Origin: Patescibacteria group bacterium
GTDB lineage: Bacteria > Patescibacteriota > Gracilibacteria > UM-FILTER-43-11
Assembly (NCBI GenBank): GCA_018813295.1
Contig: JAHJBZ010000066.1
Location: 11,231 to 75,230 of the forward strand
Length of the DNA stretch: 64,000 nt
Direction: 5' to 3'
Shown: piece by piece, positions 15,078-56,752 of the stretch
Numbering within the stretch: the first letter of the stretch is position 1
How the letters are laid out: every line of letters begins with the position of its first letter
Notes under the pieces: model-generated
What the model was told of the DNA's origin: nothing
The model's database searches: none
What the model saw: only the letters and a program-made list of their open reading frames with translations
Program-made: the position numbers and the translations under genes

Positions 15078-15150
15078 AATTACCTTGTAATTAACCCAAA
15101 AATTCACTAAAATAACTGGGCTTGCGTTTCGAATGTAGAACTTAAGTCAA

Positions 15151-15235
15151 GCCTGGGTGGTGAAATTGGTATACACGAAAGACTTAAAATCTTTTTCCTT
15201 CGGGAGTGAGGGTTCGAGTCCCTCCCCAGGCACCA
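15151..15235 (+). tRNA. tRNA-Leu (anticodon UAA), long variable arm, CCA encoded
   Basis: GCCTGGGTGGTGAAATTGGTATACACGAAAGACTTAAAATCTTTTTCCTTCGGGAGTGAGGGTTCGAGTCCCTCCCCAGGCACCA. The anticodon loop is CUUAAAA. This is a type II tRNA. Confidence 0.9.
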
Positions 15236-15303
15236 GACGAAAGCGGTGCGGTCCGCCGCAGTACGCGATAACGGAGGTAGGCGGGCCATTAAAATCAACC
15301 AAT

Positions 15304-15783
15304 ATGGATAAACTAATAAAAAAACCGGTAAAAAACTTCATGACAAAAGATGTCATTGCAGTAAAAAAAGAAGATAGCATCAAGAATGTTTTTAAATTAA
15401 TGGACGAAAATGAAATACTTGGGATTCCAGTAGTTGATGATGATAATCAACCAATCGGAATGGTAACTGAAAGTGATCTTATAAAACATTTCACAACAAT
15501 TAAAACACCTAAGGGAATTAATTTATTAGGTAGCATTGTTTTCCTGGATGACATCAGCAAATTCAATGAAAATCTAAAAGATCATTGTGCGGAATCAGTA
15601 GGGGATATAATGACAGACGTAGCAATTACAATTAACGAAGACACTCAGCTTATAGATGCAATAGACTTAATGGCACAATATAATCTAAACAGGCTTCCTG
15701 TTGTGGATAAAAAGAACAAATTGACCGGTATTATCACTCGAACAGATATAGTTCATCAACTTGCCAAATCAAAACATATATAA
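15304..15783 (+). CDS. CBS-domain pair protein
   Basis: Starts at MDKLIKKPVKNFMTKDVIAV (ATG 15304); the track start at 15157 overlaps the tRNA. There are two CBS modules (..ILGIPVVDDDNQPIGMVTESDL.. and ..LNRLPVVDKKNKLTGIITRTDI..). Confidence 0.85.
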   Translation: MDKLIKKPVKNFMTKDVIAVKKEDSIKNVFKLMDENEILGIPVVDDDNQPIGMVTESDLIKHFTTIKTPKGINLLGSIVFLDDISKFNENLKDHCAESVGDIMTDVAITINEDTQLIDAIDLMAQYNLNRLPVVDKKNKLTGIITRTDIVHQLAKSKHI

Positions 15784-16575: not shown

Positions 16576-17277
16576 ATGAAATTCAAGGCCGATAATAAAA
16601 TTTTTGAAAATTATCCAGATTTTATTGACGGTATTTTAGTGGTAAAAAATATCGATAATAACGGCACTAATCCAGAAATTACTGAGCTATTAAGAAAAAT
16701 AGAAAAAGAAATAAGAGAAATTACGGATATTGAATCAGTAAATTCACATCCTAAAATTGCGGCATGGAGAGAAGCTCACAGGAAATTTGGGAATAATCCA
16801 AAAAAATCCCCACCATCGGTACAAGCTATATTCGGTAGGGTTTATAAAGGTGGTGAATTACCAATAATTAATAAATTAGTAGATTTATATAACTACATCT
16901 CTTTAAAATATGTCGTTCCTGCTGGTGGTGAAAATTTAGACAAATGTGTAGGCGATATCGAATTAACTTATGCTGATGGTGACGAAGAATTCATTGAATT
17001 AGAATCAGTAGAAAATAGACCGCCTGAAACGGGGGAGGTGGTTTATAAAGATCAGGCAGGAGTCATTTGCAGAAAATTTAATTGGCGCGAAGCAGACAGA
17101 ACAAAATTAAGTGAAAATACAAAAAATGCTGTGTTGGTTATAGAAGGTCTGTCACCAGTAACCAGAGATGAGCTTCAGCGAACATTAGATGAATTACAGG
17201 AATTAGTGCAAAAATATTGCGGTGGTGAAAGTAATAGTTATATTTTAGATCAGGATAACCGAGAAATAGAGATTTAG
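16576..17277 (+). CDS. B3/B4 tRNA-binding-domain protein
   Basis: 233 aa. The segment HPKIAAWREAHRKFGNNPKKSPPSVQAIF...PIINKLVDLYNYISLKYVVPAGGENLD resembles stand-alone PheT B3/B4-like proteins. Confidence 0.65.
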   Translation: MKFKADNKIFENYPDFIDGILVVKNIDNNGTNPEITELLRKIEKEIREITDIESVNSHPKIAAWREAHRKFGNNPKKSPPSVQAIFGRVYKGGELPIINKLVDLYNYISLKYVVPAGGENLDKCVGDIELTYADGDEEFIELESVENRPPETGEVVYKDQAGVICRKFNWREADRTKLSENTKNAVLVIEGLSPVTRDELQRTLDELQELVQKYCGGESNSYILDQDNREIEI

Positions 17278-18305: not shown

Positions 18306-18512
18306 TTAATTTACAGCATTTCGTTTTTTGAGATATGTAATCCAAAGACTAAGCATTATATTGGTTCTAAGATCGGGAGATAGGGAAAGATAACCTGAAG
18401 GAAACCCACAAAAAGCCTCAGATAATTCTTCTATTTGTTCTATAGAAAACTGAGCTAATTTTTGACCTTCAGGATCAGTTAATTGATAACGAAGGTTTAA
18501 TAAAAATTGCAA
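18306..18512 (-). CDS. Small hypothetical protein at the end of the acidic-paralog array
   Basis: Track ORF with a TTG start. The same frame stays open upstream to 18623 (..LPKIDPECFESDVRRLRDIADQ..) without any ATG, GTG or TTG, so the true 5' end is unclear. It may be a decayed or non-canonically initiated fourth paralog. Confidence 0.4.
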   Translation of the reverse strand: MQFLLNLRYQLTDPEGQKLAQFSIEQIEELSEAFCGFPSGYLSLSPDLRTNIMLSLWITYLKKRNAVN

Positions 18513-18644
18513 ATCTGAACTCGGTAATTCTGCGATTCCTGTTCGCGACTGATCTGCTATATCCCTAAGTCTTCTTACATCCGATTCAAAACATTCAGGA
18601 TCTATTTTTGGTAAATTTATACTTTATGACATAAAAAAATTTGT

Positions 18645-19193
18645 TTAAGCATTAGAATGTTTTTCAATTAAATTCATAATTCTTATATGACCATTTTCTA
18701 AACCAGATAAAAATACTTTCAAATCTTCTGATTTATGGGAAATCGGAAAAGCAAAATGTTCAGTAATATATATCAATGCACGATCCATACGACATAATAA
18801 CTCAAGAGGAAATTGGACTCCTAATATCTCCACTATATACATTGCATAAAAAAAATCAGTAATACATTTTACATCTTCAGGACACAAAACATTTCTTTGT
18901 GTTTTCATTTTATCAACCACCATTTCCAGCAATTCTACAGCTGCTGATATCTCTTCAGAAGATTCATATTCCTTAAAATCCGGAATATCAGCAGTATATA
19001 ACCTCGCTCTAATTTCCATTAAAGTATTTCGCGCTTCATGGGTAAAATCTATCAGCGCAAAATCCAATAAAAAACCAACAACGGAAAGTGCTTGATTTGC
19101 CTGGTCTGAATCTAAACAGTCAATGTGATCAGCAACCAACTCACGCAACTGCGAAAGAACAATAATATCATCCGATTCTGGTGGTTTTGTCAC
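18645..19193 (-). CDS. Acidic all-helical hypothetical protein, paralog 1 of 3
   Basis: 182 aa from a GTG start. Shares the L..L.RMDRALIYI core with the two upstream genes. The frame is open a further 31 codons upstream, with N-terminal similarity to the paralogs but no ATG. Confidence 0.6.
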   Translation of the reverse strand: MTKPPESDDIIVLSQLRELVADHIDCLDSDQANQALSVVGFLLDFALIDFTHEARNTLMEIRARLYTADIPDFKEYESSEEISAAVELLEMVVDKMKTQRNVLCPEDVKCITDFFYAMYIVEILGVQFPLELLCRMDRALIYITEHFAFPISHKSEDLKVFLSGLENGHIRIMNLIEKHSNA

Positions 19194-19282
19194 TCCGGTA
19201 TTAACATACTTAGCACCAACTGCTTCCAGATCACCAATGATTTTTACTGCATCCGGTCGATTCTTTGAGAGATATTTAAAAA

Positions 19283-19912
19283 CTATTCAGTATCTTCTTC
19301 GCGATCAATCAAAGATTTAACTCTTTGGTGTGTAAATTTAAGTCCCTGAAAATAACCACTCAAAGGCAATTCCCCGCCAACGGTGATAGGAGACATATCT
19401 AAATACAACAACGCATCAGCAAGACGCTGTAGATGGTCCAATGAAATATCATCGCCACTAGCTAAAAGCTCATCAACAGCCATTAAACTTTGACCAAAAG
19501 CAATAGTATCCCTGGAAGGCAAATCCTCCTGCGTCCTAATCTGCTCTACCATAGCAAGAAAAGAACTAATGGATTCATCTACACTTTCATCTTCTTCTCC
19601 CTCGCCATCAAGTGTTAATTTGAGCTGTGAACGATATCGGGCTAATTCATCCTTCATTCTTTCAATAAAAATCCTCTGATTTTCGTTCAATCCTGCCCTC
19701 CTTAATAAATGTTTTAATACCTGACGTGTTCGATCTATTAAATCATCATCTAATAAATCAAAACCACCACCAATCATACTGCATGACCTCATAATCAATT
19801 TAAAATTATCATCGGTTAATAACAATTTTTCAGGTGATTTGGGATAATTTTCTGGTAACGTTTCCAGATTTTCAACGGCTACCTCTAGATTTGGTCTGTC
19901 TACGGAAGGCAT
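19283..19912 (-). CDS. Acidic all-helical hypothetical protein, paralog 2 of 3
   Basis: 209 aa. N-terminus MPSVDRPNLEVAVENLETL, core HLQRLADALLYLDM, C-terminus ..LIDREEDTE. Confidence 0.7.
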   Translation of the reverse strand: MPSVDRPNLEVAVENLETLPENYPKSPEKLLLTDDNFKLIMRSCSMIGGGFDLLDDDLIDRTRQVLKHLLRRAGLNENQRIFIERMKDELARYRSQLKLTLDGEGEEDESVDESISSFLAMVEQIRTQEDLPSRDTIAFGQSLMAVDELLASGDDISLDHLQRLADALLYLDMSPITVGGELPLSGYFQGLKFTHQRVKSLIDREEDTE

Positions 19913-19934
19913 GATTGCGAGTTAATAATTAAAA

Positions 19935-20645
19935 CTATTGATCAGGATTATCAGAGGGTTCATCACAATAAGTCTGGTGAACATCTTCAAGATGGGTTTC
20001 ATACAAATCAAGAGCTCTGCTATGCAATTCTGAGAAACTAGGATTAGTATAAAACTTGTTCAAATCCAATTTTTCACCCACACCTTGATAAGTAAGATCT
20101 GCTTGGGCTAAATAATCAAGAGCATCTACAAGAATAAACAATTGATCATAAGGAATAGATACATCTTCTGGGGATAACAAGCGGCTTAATGATGTAACGC
20201 ATGCAGTGAGGTTATCAAAAAGGGCAGAATTAAAAACACCATTAGCATTTTTTATATCTTGTACAACAGCAACAAAATTAGCAACTATCTTTTTAAGTTC
20301 AGGATCAACTGATTCTCCATCAGTAAGTATTTGTTGTATTGCTGAACGTCTAGCCTGCAATGCTACAATAACAGATTCCAAAATATTTTTCGCGGCATCG
20401 CTAATTTTTAAATCCTCTTTATCCACTCTATCTAACAAAAACCGAATAGCGCGTATAAGTTCAGAAACATGTGAAGCATTCAATCCATCAATATTTCTCA
20501 TAACGTGCAACCGTAACTCCAAAATAACCCTAAAATCACTTGTTTTTAAGGCTTTTTGAGGACTTTCACCAGAGCATCTTTGATTCAGCTCTTCAAAATC
20601 ATCAAAGGCTCTTTCTAACTCCGGTATTTCATCAAATGAGGGCAT
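19935..20645 (-). CDS. Acidic all-helical hypothetical protein, paralog 3 of 3
   Basis: 236 aa. N-terminus MPSFDEIPELERAFDDFEEL, core YDQLFILVDALDYLAQ, C-terminus ..CDEPSDNPDQ. Confidence 0.7.
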   Translation of the reverse strand: MPSFDEIPELERAFDDFEELNQRCSGESPQKALKTSDFRVILELRLHVMRNIDGLNASHVSELIRAIRFLLDRVDKEDLKISDAAKNILESVIVALQARRSAIQQILTDGESVDPELKKIVANFVAVVQDIKNANGVFNSALFDNLTACVTSLSRLLSPEDVSIPYDQLFILVDALDYLAQADLTYQGVGEKLDLNKFYTNPSFSELHSRALDLYETHLEDVHQTYCDEPSDNPDQ

Positions 20646-20740
20646 TTTTATATCAAAAATTAGATATAAGGAGTAATATTATATACCAAACAGGACAATT
20701 GTCAAACATAAATGCACCAAATAACCATCGGGTCTACAAT

Positions 20741-20770
20741 GGACCTACCCCGCTTAGCGGGGGACCTACC
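20741..20770 (-). terminator. GC-rich hairpin between the ATP-grasp fusion gene and the paralog array
   Basis: ccccgc-tta-gcgggg stem-loop (20748-20762) bracketed by the direct repeat ggacctacc. No U-tract follows, so terminator function is uncertain. Confidence 0.35.
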
Positions 20771-20776
20771 ATTGGA

Positions 20777-23134
20777 TTATCTAAGATATGCCGGCAAATA
20801 AATGGGCTTCTTAAGCCCTTTAACCTTCTTAACAATATCCAAATCATTCAAATCCAATTTTCCGTAATATAAATCGGTCAAATCCCCTCCTTTACTCACA
20901 AAATCTAATATCATTCGATACCCCTTAAAATAAACAAAGTCTTTGGTAAATGCCCCAGGTTTACTCGTGTCAGCCAATCCTCGTTTCGCCTTAATGGCCA
21001 CTTTCCATGCACGCTCAGCATCAAAACCAAGCTCTAGAATCTTGGCATAAATATCAGCAAAACTACCATTCAGAGCAGTATGAATACCGATTACAGAAGA
21101 TGCAGGCCAATATTTCTTTTGCGTTTCACTGGATTCGGTTTTTTCCTGGTTGTAAACAGCCAAACCTTCTTCGGTCATAAGATAATCAGCCAAGCCACGT
21201 TGAAATAATTTATAAGGCTGTAGTGCACCGTTCATAGCTGTAAAAGCATGAGTTTCAATCTCGTGGGCAATTGTACCTTTAAGTCTATCTTCAGAAAAAG
21301 TTGCATCACTGCGAATAGAAATGGTGTTTTGTTTACCCGCAACTGCATCAGAAACAAGTTCATCCTTAAGTTTAACGCGCCACCCCTTAAGGCCATAATC
21401 TTCAATTGCTTTTTCAAAAACCTTTTTAGCTTCTTTGGCGGACAAAACTTTTCCAGGTGCAGGAAATTTATCGGGCATAAATTTTATTTCATCATAAGCT
21501 TGATTTACAAGCTCTTCATTTGGCGCACCATATAGGTGAATGGATTTTGCAGTAAAATGACCAGTCCCACGAGACTCGAGAAGTTCAATTTTACGTTGAA
21601 TCTCATCAGCTTTCTTTCTCCAAAGAATTCCTATGGGTGTATTTGGGAACTCGATACGTTTTAAACGCGTATAAAGATTATTAGGGTCAAAAGAAAGCTC
21701 CTTGTACTTAAACTTAGGATTATATTTTGGATCCACAAGGAACTTAGTATGCTCTTCTCTTAAATTGATGGGCTTTAAGTGCGATAATAATTTAATTTGA
21801 TCATCGATGTCAAAAAGCTCCTGATCAATTTTCTCAAGATCTTTGTCGGTAAACGTTTTAGCTATATATGGAACATCTGTGGCTTTTTGCTCCGAAGAAG
21901 CAGGAGTCATATGCTTGCTTGGATCAATTAAAAAGTTTCTAAGATCTCTTTGTCCAACAAGCATTTTAAATTTTTCCTCACTAAAGTCTGCTGTATCAAC
22001 CACGGTTGTTATACGTTGATCGGCAAGGTTAAATTTACATTTTCCCGACTCATCTAATCCAATTTTTTGAGCAATGGTCTTGTCTAAAATAGACTTTTCC
22101 GTATGGGGATCCATTTGAGCAACAATTTTTGCATTATCTTTTCTTCCAATTGCCTCAACGCGCTCTAAATTTCCAATTACAATTTTTTCCGTCTTTTTTT
22201 CTTGCTTAGTTTCAGCTTTTTCGCCAAAAATATCCCGGGCAATACGCACGCCTTTCTCAGGAGTAGTCACTTTAATGCCCTCAACTCTTTCCAAACGACG
22301 ACGCAATGGAGCCATATTAGCAATTTGCACAGCAAGACCTGCACGAGCATTAATCTCTAAAAGTACTGGCCCCATATTTTTATCAAGAGTTAAATCAACT
22401 GCAGCAAAACCAAGATTTGTAACCTGCTGTACCCGGGAGGCAATTAAAAGCATTTCCTCCCAATGAGGTATTTTAATTCCTTTAACATCACCAAATCCTG
22501 GAATTCCATCTATCGATTTATTATATTGAGTTATATAGGTTAAATTGCCATTGCCGATATCAATTCCAACACCAACACCACCTAAATGAATATTAGCTTT
22601 ACCTTGGGAGCTTTCGGTTGGCAAGCGTAGCATAGCCATTACAGGAATAAGGTTATGCACCACAATTCGGATATCAGGAAGCCCCTTGTAGGCTATTTTT
22701 TTAAACATATCAGGCGCAATAAGCAGTTGCTCAAAAAGTGCAACATCGGAAATATCCGCAAGTGAATAGCGTCCATCAAGAATATCATTTATATGCCTCT
22801 CTAATTCCGCCTGAGTAAAAACTTCATCATTCCCACTAACCCAGTTACTCCCCTTACGCCCCTTAATGATCAAAATACCTTCACCCCCATAACCAGAATT
22901 AGGTTTAACTACAAAAGAATTAGGCAGACTATTGAAATCAAAATTTTTAAGTTCTTTTTTACTATGTATTGCATTGTAAAGGCGCGCCACAGGTATGCCG
23001 CGAGCGGACAAAAAGTTCTTTGTCTTAATTTTGCTATCAGCAAGCATTACAGCCTTTTTAGGGTTGTAAGCCTTGATATACAAGAGATTCCTGGCATTTA
23101 TTCCGAGCAAGCCCGGATTATGGAAAAACCACAT
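20777..23134 (-). CDS. Fusion protein: RimK-related ATP-grasp ligase (N-terminal) plus DUF1704/QEGLA/MATCAP-type metallocarboxypeptidase (C-terminal)
   Basis: 785 aa. The N-terminus (GINARNLLYIKAYNPKK..ADSKIKTKNFL..VVKPNSGYGGEGI) resembles alpha-L-glutamate-ligase-related proteins. The C-terminus has HEIETHAFTAMNG and TEEGLAVYNQE, that is HExxH plus the QEGLA-like motif. Confidence 0.8.
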   Translation of the reverse strand: MWFFHNPGLLGINARNLLYIKAYNPKKAVMLADSKIKTKNFLSARGIPVARLYNAIHSKKELKNFDFNSLPNSFVVKPNSGYGGEGILIIKGRKGSNWVSGNDEVFTQAELERHINDILDGRYSLADISDVALFEQLLIAPDMFKKIAYKGLPDIRIVVHNLIPVMAMLRLPTESSQGKANIHLGGVGVGIDIGNGNLTYITQYNKSIDGIPGFGDVKGIKIPHWEEMLLIASRVQQVTNLGFAAVDLTLDKNMGPVLLEINARAGLAVQIANMAPLRRRLERVEGIKVTTPEKGVRIARDIFGEKAETKQEKKTEKIVIGNLERVEAIGRKDNAKIVAQMDPHTEKSILDKTIAQKIGLDESGKCKFNLADQRITTVVDTADFSEEKFKMLVGQRDLRNFLIDPSKHMTPASSEQKATDVPYIAKTFTDKDLEKIDQELFDIDDQIKLLSHLKPINLREEHTKFLVDPKYNPKFKYKELSFDPNNLYTRLKRIEFPNTPIGILWRKKADEIQRKIELLESRGTGHFTAKSIHLYGAPNEELVNQAYDEIKFMPDKFPAPGKVLSAKEAKKVFEKAIEDYGLKGWRVKLKDELVSDAVAGKQNTISIRSDATFSEDRLKGTIAHEIETHAFTAMNGALQPYKLFQRGLADYLMTEEGLAVYNQEKTESSETQKKYWPASSVIGIHTALNGSFADIYAKILELGFDAERAWKVAIKAKRGLADTSKPGAFTKDFVYFKGYRMILDFVSKGGDLTDLYYGKLDLNDLDIVKKVKGLKKPIYLPAYLR

Positions 23135-23143
23135 ATAATTTAA

Positions 23144-23206
23144 TTTTCAATTTACAATTTACAATTTTCAAAAGTTTGGAAATTTAAAATTTAAAATTGT
23201 AAATTT
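23144..23206. repeat. Mirror array of degenerate heptamers
   Basis: ttttcaa tttacaa tttacaa ttttcaa ... tttaaaa tttaaaa ttgtaaa, located between the 7TM gene and the ATP-grasp fusion gene. Confidence 0.85.
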
Positions 23207-23212
23207 AGTTAT

Positions 23213-24718
23213 TTACTCCTCCGCATGTCTCATCACCTCTCTAAATCTCACATACTCCATAAGTCTAAGTCCAGTCCATCGGCCAAGACCATAATTAACA
23301 AGAAGTAAAATTAAAATAATTTCAGGATGGCCGAGCATAAGATTTTGAAGATACTGCCACTCAACAACCCAGTAACAAATAAGGGAAACGGCTGTTGTCT
23401 CAAACATTAAAAGTAATGCCGCATGAAAACCTTTGCCACCCAAAGCACTTACAAACTTTTCTGCCAACGTCGTCATAATAAGCATTGGGAAAACCGCAAT
23501 CGTTGCAATCTGGCTAATTCCCAAATACGTACCAAAAGCGAGCATAAGCAAAATAATAAGCGTTGAAATCGTCAGAATTATGGCAATTCTCGGAATATGG
23601 AGTAGCCGAAAACGATCCAAAGCTTTGCGCAGAACTGCTCCTGTAACAATAATGATCACAAGAATTGTTAAACCAAACTTTAGACCTAAAGCTAAAAATG
23701 AAAGTGTGATAATAGAAGGTGTATAAAGACCAAATGTGGTAATACCGATAACCTGTTTTAAGAACGTAATAATGGTTACGATAACCGGAAGCATAAGAAG
23801 GAGCACAATGGTGTTACTTGGAATTCCTTTGCTAATCATAAAGCTAACCAAATAAGAAATGGAATTCCAGATACTGACACGACCGGTTTCTTCATTAATT
23901 ACAGTATAATCAGAAATACTGGCTTCTAAATCTTTCAAAAACACATCTACAGATTCTGCAACAATAAGATTTTTCAGCTCATACTGACGGGTGATAATAA
24001 TCTGTTTAGGCTGAATAATATTAAAGTTACCCTGCATAATACGACCAAATGTATTTAAACTCTCATCTGTAATAACAACGATACTTTTCCCTTTAAGGGA
24101 ATCCTGAACTTGAGACATTTCTTCCTTAGCTGCCTGCTGAACCAAACGGGTTAATGCATTAATCCCGCTACCACGCGTTGTCCAGATAACTATGGAATTG
24201 GCGCTATTAAGGATCGAAACCTGATCGGATAATTTCTTGGAAAGGGCTTCTTCGGACATAAAAGCCGTAGTGCTGTCATAACTTTCGATCAAGAAAATAT
24301 ATGTTCCCTCTTCTTCGGCCTCGGTTCTTAGATTTGCAATATTTTCCTTTTTATCGGTTACATCTGTAAGCATCAAAACAAGTTTTGTATACACAAAAAC
24401 ATCCCGAACGATTGATTCCTTCTCTCTGCCCTGAGTAACAGTAAGAGCTACTGGATAACTTCCAGGGCTGTCATATGTATGCACAACTTCTTCGCCCCAT
24501 TGAACAGCACTGCCATCCCCAAAATCCCACTGGTAACTCACAGTATCATCATTATCCAGAAGAAATGATGAAGAGGCATCAAAAATTATACTTTTATCAA
24601 CCTGAACAATATCCTGCGCAGTAATTATCGGACGAAGTTCATTTAAAAAATCCACCGCCCCTGCTGTTATTGGAAGTAGGAATAGAGAGAGAAGTATTGA
24701 GATCAGAAATTTCTTCAT
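23213..24718 (-). CDS. Signal peptide + PKD-like domain + linker domain + C-terminal 7-TM module (7TM_transglut/UUP1-like)
   Basis: 501 aa. PKD-like YQWDFGDGSAVQWGEEVVHTYDSPGSYPVALTV. The C-terminal seven hydrophobic helices end in GRWTGLRLMEYVRFRE, as in 7-TM proteins that neighbour RimK-like ligases. Confidence 0.7.
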   Translation of the reverse strand: MKKFLISILLSLFLLPITAGAVDFLNELRPIITAQDIVQVDKSIIFDASSSFLLDNDDTVSYQWDFGDGSAVQWGEEVVHTYDSPGSYPVALTVTQGREKESIVRDVFVYTKLVLMLTDVTDKKENIANLRTEAEEEGTYIFLIESYDSTTAFMSEEALSKKLSDQVSILNSANSIVIWTTRGSGINALTRLVQQAAKEEMSQVQDSLKGKSIVVITDESLNTFGRIMQGNFNIIQPKQIIITRQYELKNLIVAESVDVFLKDLEASISDYTVINEETGRVSIWNSISYLVSFMISKGIPSNTIVLLLMLPVIVTIITFLKQVIGITTFGLYTPSIITLSFLALGLKFGLTILVIIIVTGAVLRKALDRFRLLHIPRIAIILTISTLIILLMLAFGTYLGISQIATIAVFPMLIMTTLAEKFVSALGGKGFHAALLLMFETTAVSLICYWVVEWQYLQNLMLGHPEIILILLLVNYGLGRWTGLRLMEYVRFREVMRHAEE

Positions 24719-25891: not shown

Positions 25892-26320
25892 TCAAAATTG
25901 CCATCTGGAATAACCCTCTAGCTCACCAACGGGATTCAGCTCCAATATCTCTGGCTCTCTATCAATTGGATTATCAGCATCAACAGGCTCAAGATAAACC
26001 TGAACGGGCCCACCCCTGTCTTTTCTAAGTAAGAGTACTCGACGCACATCCTCTGCTAAAATCGCAAAATCTCCACCAATTGTTTTATGCCCCACCATAT
26101 TTCTATTGGTCATTAACAAAATATCATCTCGAGTTTGTCCAACAATCACACCCCTACAAGATTCTATTGTATCCGGATCTGCAGCTATCCGTTCCGGCTG
26201 TCCTGGATTCCAAGGATCCCCAACTGTAAATGATAATTCAGGTTTTTCTGAAGACATAAAATAAGAGTAACTTGATATATTTAGGATGATCATCCTATTA
26301 AAAAAAGAAGGATTCGTCAA
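25892..26320 (-). CDS. Hypothetical protein, family not recognised
   Basis: 142-aa ORF with TGA stop. A more likely start is MSSEKPEL at 26257. It is bracketed by GC-rich structured spacers. Confidence 0.5.
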   Translation of the reverse strand: MTNPSFFNRMIILNISSYSYFMSSEKPELSFTVGDPWNPGQPERIAADPDTIESCRGVIVGQTRDDILLMTNRNMVGHKTIGGDFAILAEDVRRVLLLRKDRGGPVQVYLEPVDADNPIDREPEILELNPVGELEGYSRWQF

Positions 26321-55045: not shown

Positions 55046-56752
55046 ATGGATAACACCCTGAAAAACACATTCGGGTTAGCAATAAGTAATGAGATGCTCA
55101 CTGCTGTAGAGCTGGCTTACAATAAGTCAGGACTTAAGGTAATTAATTTTTCTAAAGTTGATTTGGAACCAGGCGTAGTAGAAAATAATTGTATTATTAT
55201 CAATCCTCTGGCACTCAAAGAAGCCCTATCCAAACTTCTGCAGGAAGCAAAAATGGGGCCAATTAAATCAGAAAATGTAATAATTTCAATCCCTGAAGAA
55301 AAAACATTTAATCATCACATAGATATTCCAAAAGAGCAGGTAAAAAATAAAGAATTTATAAAAAATGTGGCCAGGGACTTTATCCCAATTGCGCTTGACG
55401 ATGCAATAATCGACTACAAACAAATTCGAAGCAATCCTGGACAAAATTACATAACTTTTAACTTTGTAGCCGTTCAAAAAAACATTATAGATTCACTTAC
55501 GAAAGTATTAAGTGAAGCAAATTTAAACGTAGTAGCTGTAGATATTGATAAAAACAGCATAATTCGTTCTTGTAACAATTCTTTGCAAAAAAATGAAGGC
55601 GATTTCATGGTGGTGAACATAGGTATGAATAAATCGACAATAAATATTACAACGTCTTCGGGTTTTTATTATAATATCGATGCAAAAATAGAAGGGAAAA
55701 AATTAGATGAAAAAATTAAAGAATTATTAAAGATTCCGAGTATTGCAGATGTAAGAACATTGCTCATGCAATTCAGCCAGGATGAAAATGTAATAAAAGC
55801 CGATCAGAAAAAAATCCTAGAGCAAGGTTTGCAAAGTTATTTTGCAACTTTCATTAAAAAAATAAACGAATTAATCCAGGCAATTGGGAACAGGGGAGGA
55901 CTGGAGCTTAATACAATTTACTTAATAGGCTGTCATTCATGTGTACCCGGGATTGAAGAAACATTTAAAGAAGCTTTCCCAAAAACAGAAATAAAACATA
56001 AATTAAATTATATCCAGCTTGATGAAACAACGGAATTAATTTACCCATATGCTATTGGTTTGGCCCTTAGGGCTGTTTTGCCGGAAGTTAATGAAAATGA
56101 TATCAACCTGCTTCCGCAAAATAAAAAAGAGGAATTGGAAGAGAGAAAAGTAACACCTGTTATTAGAAGATATTTGTTAGGAACTTGTATTATGCTAGGT
56201 GGCTTACTTATATTGTCAGGCATATTCACCAGCAAAACATATTTGGGCTATAGAGTAAGTTCACAGGAGTTAAGCCTATTGGAAGAAAAAGCAATGAACC
56301 CCTACCTAAGAGAAGCGGCACAGGAAATACAACAGGAAACACAATTGGCAAATCAAATTCTCAGCATAGTGGAGGGCGCTGTGCCCGGCAGTAAAACTAT
56401 GAAAATATTTGATAACTACAATACAAACGGCATTACTTTGGTAAATGTAAACTACAGCATAAATACAAACAAAGAAATTGAAATACGCTTAAGGGCAAAA
56501 GCATCTTCTAGGTCTGCAATTGAAGAATTCATTTTAGAATTAGAAAGCAGCCCATATTTTACTGAAGTCATATCCCCTCTTTCCAATCTGGTTGGCAAAG
56601 GAGAACGTTTTATTAATATAGATCTAAAATTAAATGCAAACGAAATAATAAATGAACACGAGAAAGAAAAAGAGGAAGCCGAAACAAAAGTAATGCAAGA
56701 TTCTGAAAATAAACCTAAACAACCTTCTATTCAGCAACCAGCTGAGGAATAA
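55046..56752 (+). CDS. pilM: PilM (actin-like ATPase) fused to a PilN-like transmembrane/periplasmic region
   Basis: 568 aa. N-terminal PilM-like fold (FGLAISNEMLTAVELAY..). TM helix RRYLLGTCIMLGGLLILSGIF at about residue 372. Coiled-coil and alpha/beta C-terminus. Confidence 0.8.
   Translation: MDNTLKNTFGLAISNEMLTAVELAYNKSGLKVINFSKVDLEPGVVENNCIIINPLALKEALSKLLQEAKMGPIKSENVIISIPEEKTFNHHIDIPKEQVKNKEFIKNVARDFIPIALDDAIIDYKQIRSNPGQNYITFNFVAVQKNIIDSLTKVLSEANLNVVAVDIDKNSIIRSCNNSLQKNEGDFMVVNIGMNKSTINITTSSGFYYNIDAKIEGKKLDEKIKELLKIPSIADVRTLLMQFSQDENVIKADQKKILEQGLQSYFATFIKKINELIQAIGNRGGLELNTIYLIGCHSCVPGIEETFKEAFPKTEIKHKLNYIQLDETTELIYPYAIGLALRAVLPEVNENDINLLPQNKKEELEERKVTPVIRRYLLGTCIMLGGLLILSGIFTSKTYLGYRVSSQELSLLEEKAMNPYLREAAQEIQQETQLANQILSIVEGAVPGSKTMKIFDNYNTNGITLVNVNYSINTNKEIEIRLRAKASSRSAIEEFILELESSPYFTEVISPLSNLVGKGERFINIDLKLNANEIINEHEKEKEEAETKVMQDSENKPKQPSIQQPAEE

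Follow-up and report, generated by a model that had tools for sequence, protein, structure and literature searches.

A Peregrinibacteria gene pair: a ligase, a retropepsin-like fold and a MATCAP-type carboxypeptidase in one enzyme, next to a membrane protein that ends in Glu-Glu

Introduction

What would be the substrate of an enzyme that joins, in a single chain, a ligase of a kind that may lengthen the end of a protein and a peptidase of a kind that may shorten it? This question is raised by a block of minus-strand genes in a Patescibacteria contig (JAHJBZ010000066.1), of which a stretch of 64,000 nucleotides, hereafter the window, was analysed. There, the gene of a 501-residue membrane protein (23213-24718) is followed by that of a 785-residue cytoplasmic enzyme (20777-23134), made of an ATP-grasp ligase, a retropepsin-like fold and a MATCAP-type carboxypeptidase, and then by an array of acidic paralogs. 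An earlier note, written from the letters of the window alone, had seen in this block a candidate system for the tailing and trimming of C-termini, with the array as its plausible substrates or adaptors. We find that the functional unit is the pair formed by the first two genes, not the whole block, and that the membrane protein itself, which ends with an invariant run of glutamates, may be what the enzyme modifies. The locus is akin to the proteobacterial rloABC genes, in a compacted version that is specific to Peregrinibacteria and augmented by MATCAP: with a seven-transmembrane (7TM) domain, an ATP-grasp ligase and a retropepsin fold, it holds counterparts of all three rloABC products, plus the MATCAP domain, in two genes.

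To our knowledge, the function of the MATCAP family is known only in eukaryotes, where it processes the tail of tubulin, and we know of no substrate either for its bacterial members (DUF1704, or QEGLA) or for the Rlo-type 7TM/ATP-grasp systems. In Pseudomonas, the rlo genes affect osmotic tolerance, cell shape, biofilm formation and susceptibility to antibiotics. Two precedents frame what follows: the MATCAP/TMCP enzymes need a penultimate Glu, remove a C-terminal Tyr or Glu and shorten polyGlu (PMC10499314), and RimK extends the -EE C-terminus of S6, which is trimmed by RimB (PMC11957051; PMC4431377).

A gene pair standard in its lineage

The six open reading frames (ORFs) of the block, of 501, 785, 236, 209, 182 and 68 residues, are all present on the minus strand where the earlier note had placed them, and the motifs that it had quoted (GINARNLLYI, VVKPNSGYGGEGI, HEIETH, TEEGLAVYNQE and GRWTGLRLMEYVRFRE) are all found in their translations. 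The searches with profile hidden Markov models (HMMs) that it had called for bore out the PKD, 7TM_transglut, ATP-grasp and MATCAP/QEGLA assignments. The whole block is found identically in two Patescibacteria metagenome-assembled genomes (GCA_018822925.1 and GCA_018824965.1).

The enzyme has a wide kinship. More than 120 full-length clusters of homologs, at 50-81% identity and with the same two Pfam domains throughout, come from Peregrinibacteria, Gracilibacteria and other Patescibacteria, and their database names are only 'DUF1704 domain-containing' or 'tyrosine/phenylalanine carboxypeptidase domain-containing' protein. Relatives of the fusion are encoded in 515 species, counted at one genome per species, and the best 80 of these, all Peregrinibacteria or Peribacteria, make up the set of species loci used below. 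The fusion is complete in all 80, with the PKD-7TM gene directly upstream of it in every informative locus, at a median distance of 19.5 nucleotides (n=76). Among the 120 partner homologs listed, all those that are full-length (truncated ones being excepted) carry both PKD and 7TM_transglut. Found as it is across the loci of the lineage, the pair is the norm there and not a peculiarity of this window, so that the impression, given from the window alone, that the fusion and the PKD-7TM architecture were unusual gives way to that of a standard form across Peregrinibacteria. We regard the architecture described in the next two sections as almost certain.

One arrangement of the pair can be recorded for its own sake. 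In the complete Peregrinibacteria genome CP064978 (locus L001, 6061-7947), gene calling splits the 7TM partner in two, a PKD protein of 338 residues and a 7TM protein of 152 residues; a gene of the 23S_rRNA_IVP family lies there between partner and fusion, and an ORF resembling N-formylglutamate amidohydrolase may come after the fusion.

Three domains in one enzyme

The enzyme begins with an ATP-grasp ligase of the RloC/TIGR02291 type (residues 1-300; 22235-23134, minus strand), which aligns with PF14397 (E 1e-62) and TIGR02291 (E 3e-81). The latter model, named 'alpha-L-glutamate ligase-like', is matched over its full length with 272.7 bits, against a curated cut-off of 314.2, and the domain is 37-41% identical to RloC-like proteins of Legionella and Aeromonas. 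Its catalytic residues K77, D247, E260 and N262, corresponding to the Lys, Asp and ExN motif listed in PMC4431377, are invariant in the 82 orthologs compared. The cut-offs of the RimK families themselves were missed (41.7 bits against 143.4 for TIGR00768, 15.6 against 21 for PF08443), and a sequence search of solved structures with this domain found no RimK structure.

The other end of the chain (residues 438-785; 20780-21823, minus strand) is a zinc carboxypeptidase of the MATCAP/QEGLA type, with 195.1 bits for PF08014 (E 2e-57; gathering score 27) and a match to TIGR02421 (E 4e-61) that stays below the cut-off of this QEGLA equivalog (207.3 bits against 338.65). Human MATCAP (7Z5G) was matched at E 2e-16, and at 2e-21 with a profile, the HEIETH motif (21248-21265) aligning with HEIGTH and TEEGLA being identical. 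Defined by the HExxxH motif together with the EEG motif of the third ligand (PMC10499314), the active site comprises H624, E625, H629, E656 and G657, again invariant in 82 of 82 orthologs; the motif that reads EEGLA in the window does so in 25 of them and reads QEGLA in the other 57. With both catalytic centres conserved without exception in the 82 orthologs, support is found for the idea that the union of a RimK-related ligase with a carboxypeptidase of the MATCAP type implies a cycle of addition and trimming at a C-terminus.

Between the two lies what had passed for a linker. Residues 312-410 (21905-22201, minus strand) are modelled by AlphaFold2 (AF2) with a predicted local distance difference test (pLDDT) score of 92.6, and Foldseek places next to this model, as best matches in the PDB, RloA (9G58) and RloA2 (9G59; template-modelling, or TM, score 0.74), the periplasmic aspartic peptidases of Pseudomonas; Legionella Lpg0085 (2PMA, DUF785) and the RVP domains of Ddi1 come next. 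The linker of the window, taken alone, gave no match by single-sequence hmmscan and none by a profile search of the PDB, Zn_protease/DUF785 being undetected in both. In distant orthologs it reads AKIDTGxxRSxID...GxRDLxxFLID, which is a retropepsin signature, and 10 of 41 ortholog linkers match the clan-AA aspartyl-protease families PF13650/PF13975 (best E 3e-4). The relation to retropepsins is thus visible only because of the orthologs that retain DTG and because of the predicted fold. In the window, the active site has DPH instead of DTG; D[TS]G is kept in 15 of the 82 orthologs and the Asp in 49, and this loss in the majority of them indicates that the domain is mostly non-catalytic. The enzyme as a whole is basic, with an isoelectric point (pI) of 9.2.

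A membrane partner with a fixed end

The partner gene (23213-24718, minus strand) encodes a signal peptide, an ectodomain in two parts, a seven-helix membrane domain of the RloB type and a cytoplasmic tail. The first part of the ectodomain is an extracytoplasmic PKD domain (residues 30-100; 24419-24631), well above the cut-offs of both PF18911 (E 3e-17; 62.8 bits against 27) and PF00801 (E 1e-11; 45.1 against 23.5). The second part (residues ~101-300; 23819-24418) appears in its AF2 model (pLDDT 86.5) as a flavodoxin- or Rossmann-like domain in which beta and alpha elements alternate, and Foldseek returned for it weak generic alpha/beta matches alone, at TM scores of at most 0.43. It stands where RloB carries an inactive transglutaminase module, and a cryptic transglutaminase was a candidate for it: this was rejected, as the model is an alpha/beta sandwich for which Foldseek found no papain or transglutaminase match and Pfam no match of any kind. 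Nor do the 311 N-terminal positions of the NCBIfam RloB model align with the partner protein. Positions 312-507 of the same model align with its residues 302-497, and the membrane domain (residues ~302-478; 23285-23815) matches PF14402, or 7TM_transglut, at E 2e-34 (119.5 bits against a cut-off of 25), with a hydropathy and a positive-inside pattern that are consistent with seven helices.

It is the very end of this protein that deserves emphasis. The tail, GRWTGLRLMEYVRFREVMRHAEE (23216-23284, minus strand), is rich in Lys and Arg and predicted, from hydropathy and the positive-inside rule, to be cytoplasmic; its two last codons (23216-23221) specify Glu-Glu. In the species loci, the partner orthologs end with EE, EEE or EEEE in 75 cases out of 75, at identities of 39-84%, an ending found in just 3 of the 547 other ORFs of at least 150 residues in the same loci; in an independent protein set, 113 of 114 full-length partners share it, the exception being truncated. 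For 72 full-length partners, the end can be written ...GRW(T/S)GLRxxE(Y/R)xRFRE(V/I)x(R/K)(H/Y)x, with two to four glutamates (EE, EEE or EEEE) before the stop codon: the number of glutamates varies among orthologs, as does the residue that precedes them, and no residue ever follows them. In the window, the only other long ORF with such an end is an unrelated one of 568 residues (55046-56752, plus strand; ...QQPAEE). The earlier reading, sound as to the domains and to the idea of addition and trimming, had overlooked both this invariant end and the retropepsin-like nature of the linker.

The fixed end belongs to this lineage. In 79 proteobacterial RloB loci recovered from metagenomes, where RloC is adjacent in all 79, RloA in 72 and a MATCAP gene nearby in none, the RloB-type proteins have 67 distinct tails, of which one ends with -EE and 14 with -ED, the remainder being heterogeneous; the RloB-like proteins of Legionella and Aeromonas have the RF motif yet end differently. 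That -EE could be a general property of the 7TM_transglut family was accordingly rejected. A further clue comes from a plasmid of the archaeon Halobacterium sp. DL1 (CP007061; locus L094, 5164-6918), where an unannotated ORF of 584 residues fuses the C-terminus of a 7TM domain directly to the N-terminus of a TIGR02291-like ATP-grasp domain, a Rosetta-stone arrangement which places the 7TM tail and the ligase together in the cytoplasm.

As an observation apart, the 14 RloB-type tails in -ED, about a fifth of those distinct in the proteobacterial loci (L102-L181), have the form ...RFKP(L/V/I)xED, and the tail may matter in a subset of the classical Rlo systems.

A proposed cycle and its alternatives

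These features can be assembled in the following way. The enzyme would dock at the cytoplasmic face of the 7TM protein and behave as a writer and eraser of its partner's own C-terminus, with its two to four glutamates. The ligase would add one or several residues, most likely Glu by analogy with RimK and S6, and the MATCAP domain would cut the added residues back to the encoded -EE stub; the length of the tail could then adjust how active the 7TM protein is, according to what the ectodomain perceives, and the degenerate retropepsin fold might bind peptides, mediate dimerisation or have a regulatory role. That the tail of the partner is the substrate of the fused ligase and peptidase, by a mechanism that we infer, has in our judgement not quite an even chance. 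The more demanding proposal, namely that of a bacterial cycle akin to the tubulin code, in which one bifunctional enzyme extends and trims the Glu-Glu end and the resulting length gates the 7TM protein, we put forward more tentatively still.

Several considerations weigh against this picture. The assignment of the substrate is pure inference. The association of the -EE tail with MATCAP, as against variable tails where MATCAP is missing, is essentially one contrast between two clades, and not a collection of many independent events. Proteobacterial RloB proteins, whose end is not -EE, work with the same ligase family, and in the Halobacterium fusion the 7TM end is not free, so that the ancestral substrate of this ligase family was probably different. 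The ligase itself lies below the cut-offs of both TIGR02291 and the RimK model TIGR00768, and a sequence search with it brought up no RimK structure. Docking or sorting, rather than modification, could be what the -EE end is for. Finally, a writer fused to its eraser is a futile cycle unless it is regulated.

The most serious alternative draws on what is known of the Rlo genes. The ATP-grasp domain would make or modify a free peptide or an envelope precursor, oligo-glutamate for example, which the 7TM protein would handle or export; this product would be degraded or limited by MATCAP, joined in some lineages by the retropepsin, while the -EE tail would be a docking element or an autoinhibitory mimic. 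In Pseudomonas, the loss of rloB or rloC rescues a protease-null rloA1-3 mutant, as if the product of RloBC were harmful and removed by the proteases (PMC11957051), and work cited in PMC4431377 has RimK making free poly-alpha-glutamate as well. The RloB-type partners, which have no conserved C-terminus, and the Halobacterium fusion, without a free 7TM tail, fit such a scenario, as do the stand-alone QEGLA proteins, which pair with GshB-like ligases and no 7TM protein. Making a product would leave unexplained, however, why it is the very C-terminus that is invariant (75 of 75 and 113 of 114) where a mere acidic patch would do, and, while RloA is secreted, the peptidases here share a cytoplasmic chain with the ligase. 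We hold this alternative to be rather unlikely, though worth keeping in mind.

The substrate might also be some other cytoplasmic protein with an acidic C-terminus, such as S6, the 7TM protein doing no more than anchoring or regulating the enzyme. The kinship of the enzyme with RimK, the precedent set by the RimK-RimB couple of ligase and retropepsin, and the cytoplasmic position of the retropepsin fold, which is that of RimB, would all suit this idea. It accounts neither for the strict pairing with the 7TM gene nor for the fixation of -EE in this lineage, and neither an S6 gene nor any other candidate is linked to the locus, the sole other -EE ORF of the window being the unrelated protein of 568 residues; we judge it improbable. 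As for the acidic paralogs as substrates or adaptors of the ligase and peptidase, their distribution largely refutes this model and makes it very improbable indeed, as we now describe.

The acidic paralogs and the gap in which they lie

Downstream of the fusion, on the same strand, lie paralog A (236 residues, ending ..SDNPDQ; 19935-20645), paralog B (209 residues, ending ..REEDTE; 19283-19912) and paralog C (182 residues; 18645-19193), in tandem. Their paralogy is real: A and B are 27% identical over their full length (BLASTP E 4e-8), the links from B to C (5e-4) and from A to C (5e-3) are weaker, and one joint profile covers all three from end to end. They are acidic, as had been noticed (pI 4.5-4.7), and no significant match was found for them in Pfam, NCBIfam, PHROGs or PADLOC, in keeping with the earlier statement that they have no recognisable domain; the sub-threshold matches were to FlgN (17.9 bits against 30.5) and to phrog families (E at least 0.009), with none in PADLOC. 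The MPS.D N-terminus attributed to them is found in A and B and fails in C. In the latter, homology runs some 24 codons upstream of the first ATG, GTG or TTG, up to ~19265, through a stretch with no canonical start, and public gene calls give 206 residues; the start codon therefore appears to have been lost, and a lost start, a non-canonical one or incipient decay are all possible. That the N- and C-terminal halves of these proteins would be internal repeats was considered and is unsupported (hhalign probability 22.7%). The fourth and shortest frame, ORF D (68 residues; 18306-18512, minus strand, the frame being open from 18623 with no canonical start), is found in assemblies of the same organism only and its coding status is uncertain; it has no significant match to the profile of the family, and its promotion to a fourth paralog was rejected.

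The family is remarkably narrow. Its profile, run against a word-indexed set of 5.8 billion proteins, found only the three proteins of the window, and HMMER, run exhaustively over 1.84 billion representatives, added only three further relatives, of 104-115 residues. All three are encoded directly downstream of the fusion (in loci L010 and L011 and on a Logan contig) and match the N-terminal half alone; the missing C-terminal half is matched, in L011, by the gene that follows (E 7.7e-5, when the model is made solely of window sequences), whence the family exists elsewhere as split half-genes. The paralogs and their L010/L011 counterparts are about 30% identical where the neighbouring genes are at 83-90%, and the promoter with its 5' leader (20640-20710) is nearly identical between the species of the window, of L010 and of L011: the coding sequence of this family is evolving unusually fast. 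The C-termini known for it are ..NPDQ, ..EDTE, ..HSNA, ..KCIG, ..AREA and ..LDRR; none is -EE, and this lack of conservation is the opposite of what is expected of a substrate that would be tailed at its C-terminus.

How the gap between the fusion and the convergent queA gene is occupied in relatives tells the same story. Of the 80 species loci, 10 have too little sequence downstream and one lacks the 3' end of the fusion; in the 69 that are informative, queA lies within 150 nucleotides of the fusion stop in 36 and at a greater distance in 11, while 22 have no queA in the flank. In L004 and L006, where the fusion is 79-81% identical to that of the window, and in L002 (51%), the stop is 3-25 nucleotides from queA with nothing between. 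Elsewhere, the gap contains unrelated small orphan ORFs, the gene of a PEBP-like lipoprotein or an IS256-family transposase, the latter (Transposase_mut, two ORFs) in a close relative (L098, 4376-5587). With contents that differ from genome to genome, the gap is a hotspot of insertion. The gap ORFs of L012, L021, L022, L025, L028, L029 and L031 are unrelated to the paralogs by HMM iteration, by all-against-all BLASTP and by hhalign, where the best alignment, over the first 26 residues of the ORF of L012, reached a probability of 13.7%.

As for the signals of the region, just past the fusion stop is the hairpin CCCCGC-TAA-GCGGGG that had been pointed out earlier (20748-20763, minus strand), flanked by a direct 9-mer, GGTAGGTCC; as it has no run of T, it was not called a terminator. 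The piece of about 45-60 nucleotides that holds it (20741-20770) is missing from the intergenic region of L010 and L011, alignable otherwise, and is thus an insertion relative to these two. A second hairpin, terminator-like, is at 20742-20725. Beyond it, a sigma-70 promoter, TTGACA-16-TATAAT (20678-20705, minus strand), matches the consensus at 12 of 12 positions and would serve the array, not the core system.

In favour of a link between array and enzyme, the paralogs are adjacent and on the same strand, three other genomes have members of their family just after the fusion, and they are acidic (pI ~4.5) where the enzyme is basic. In the survey of relatives, hardly any of the 80 species loci with the enzyme pair had the array, the very result that the earlier note had named as speaking against its model. 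Its carriers all belong to one shallow clade, which also has members without it and in which all neighbours are syntenic: linkage to the fusion is as uninformative as linkage to queA or to L25, and has no independent weight. Together with the promoter of their own, conserved and placed downstream of the hairpins, with the variety of what fills the same gap elsewhere, with variable C-termini and with a copy that appears to have lost its start codon, this leaves the proposal that they are substrates or adaptors unsupported. They were likewise rejected as a conserved part of the system, being restricted to the source organism and three close relatives, with a gap that most genomes leave empty. 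They form a lineage-restricted, fast-evolving orphan family, transcribed independently as its promoter predicts, and very probably do not belong to the core. A phage or defence origin, for them or for the core genes, found no support either, PHROGs and PADLOC giving no significant match.

Neighbouring features

Other small differences between relatives flank the locus. On the plus strand, a gene of 233 residues with a B3_4 domain (16576-17277) sits between those of ribosomal protein L25 and queA; it is also found in the identical contigs L007 and L008, from metagenome-assembled genomes, and is absent from that position in the close relatives L004 and L006, another small lineage-specific insertion. 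On the minus strand, an orphan ORF of 142 residues with no Pfam match (25892-26320) separates the CobA/CobO-like gene from that of a class-IV aminotransferase, which in L004 have about 75 intergenic nucleotides. A tRNA-Leu(UAA) gene (15151-15235, plus strand) accounts for the spurious ORFs that overlap it (15107-15383).

What the locus may teach

The proteins of this pair are already in the databases, uncharacterised. New here are the recognition of a third domain in the enzyme, the description of what the ectodomain is, the case against the paralogs and the hypothesis of the -EE tail. In the literature that was searched, MATCAP together with ATP-grasp is unmentioned, and the sole mention of DUF1704 is in an unrelated paper, the survey of Iyer et al. 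(2009) being outside this scope. A ligase, a retropepsin fold and MATCAP in one protein, next to a partner with a fixed Glu-Glu end, amount to a concrete and testable hypothesis about a substrate, and the outcome could show what the Rlo and QEGLA systems do elsewhere. If the cycle resembling the tubulin code were true, the MATCAP family would have its first function in a prokaryote, and the eukaryotic scheme, in which acidic tails are written by an ATP-grasp enzyme and erased by MATCAP, could plausibly have evolved from such a cycle. The analysis also corrects an attractive yet unsupported link between the enzyme and the orphan genes that happen to be its neighbours.

Comparison with known systems

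The closest relative is the rloABC system of Pseudomonas, made of RloA, a secreted retropepsin, RloB, a 7TM protein with an inactive transglutaminase, and RloC, an ATP-grasp protein (PMC11957051). Both have a 7TM protein of the same PF14402 family, with the RloB model extending over the whole 7TM domain including G.Y.GxRLxExxRF, an ATP-grasp domain that resembles TIGR02291, here below its curated score, a retropepsin fold that matches RloA, and genes in tight adjacency. They differ in that the retropepsin fold is here internal to a cytoplasmic enzyme instead of being secreted, with DTG mostly lost; in that the ectodomain consists of PKD and an alpha/beta domain, not of a transglutaminase fold; and in that MATCAP has been added (0 of 79 proteobacterial loci have it nearby) and the 7TM tail fixed as -EE. 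The Halobacterium sp. DL1 protein joins the same 7TM and ligase families physically, and has no ectodomain, no retropepsin fold, no MATCAP domain and no free 7TM C-terminus.

With RimK, RimB and S6, the resemblance lies in an ATP-grasp ligase accompanied by a cytoplasmic protein of the retropepsin type, in an -EE end and in a variable number of glutamates; there, addition is opposed by trimming, and the same opposition is found in the proposed cycle. The ligase is nevertheless of another subfamily, below the RimK cut-offs, the proposed substrate is in the membrane, and the eraser would be a zinc carboxypeptidase and not a retropepsin. Tubulin tyrosination and glutamylation, where TTL/TTLL enzymes face MATCAP/TMCP and CCP, share with our system a PF08014 peptidase with intact HExxxH and EEG motifs and, as far as sequence predicts it here, the logic by which an ATP-grasp enzyme writes on an acidic -EE tail and a carboxypeptidase erases. 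In contrast to the tubulin case, a single chain carries both writer and eraser, the ligase is kin to RimK and not of the TTL type (TTL E 0.1), and the target is not tubulin.

A MATCAP-family peptidase coupled to a ligase, as in our fusion, is also met in proteobacteria, where QEGLA (TIGR02421) genes lie beside GshB-like ATP-grasp genes in Photobacterium, Sinorhizobium and Shinella. In Photobacterium (L100, 7089-10083; L101, 7062-10065), the GshB-like gene, for 342 residues, overlaps the start of a QEGLA gene for 662-665 residues. Unlike in the fusion, the genes are separate, the ATP-grasp protein is annotated as glutathione synthase and there is no 7TM partner; the proteobacterial QEGLA proteins are longer, with 617-665 residues, and N-formylglutamate amidohydrolase is linked to them in Rhizobiaceae. 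Such pairs in both Photobacterium and Rhizobiaceae make the association of MATCAP with ATP-grasp a recurring bacterial theme, and the Peregrinibacteria module merges this theme, that of QEGLA and its ligase, with that of rlo.

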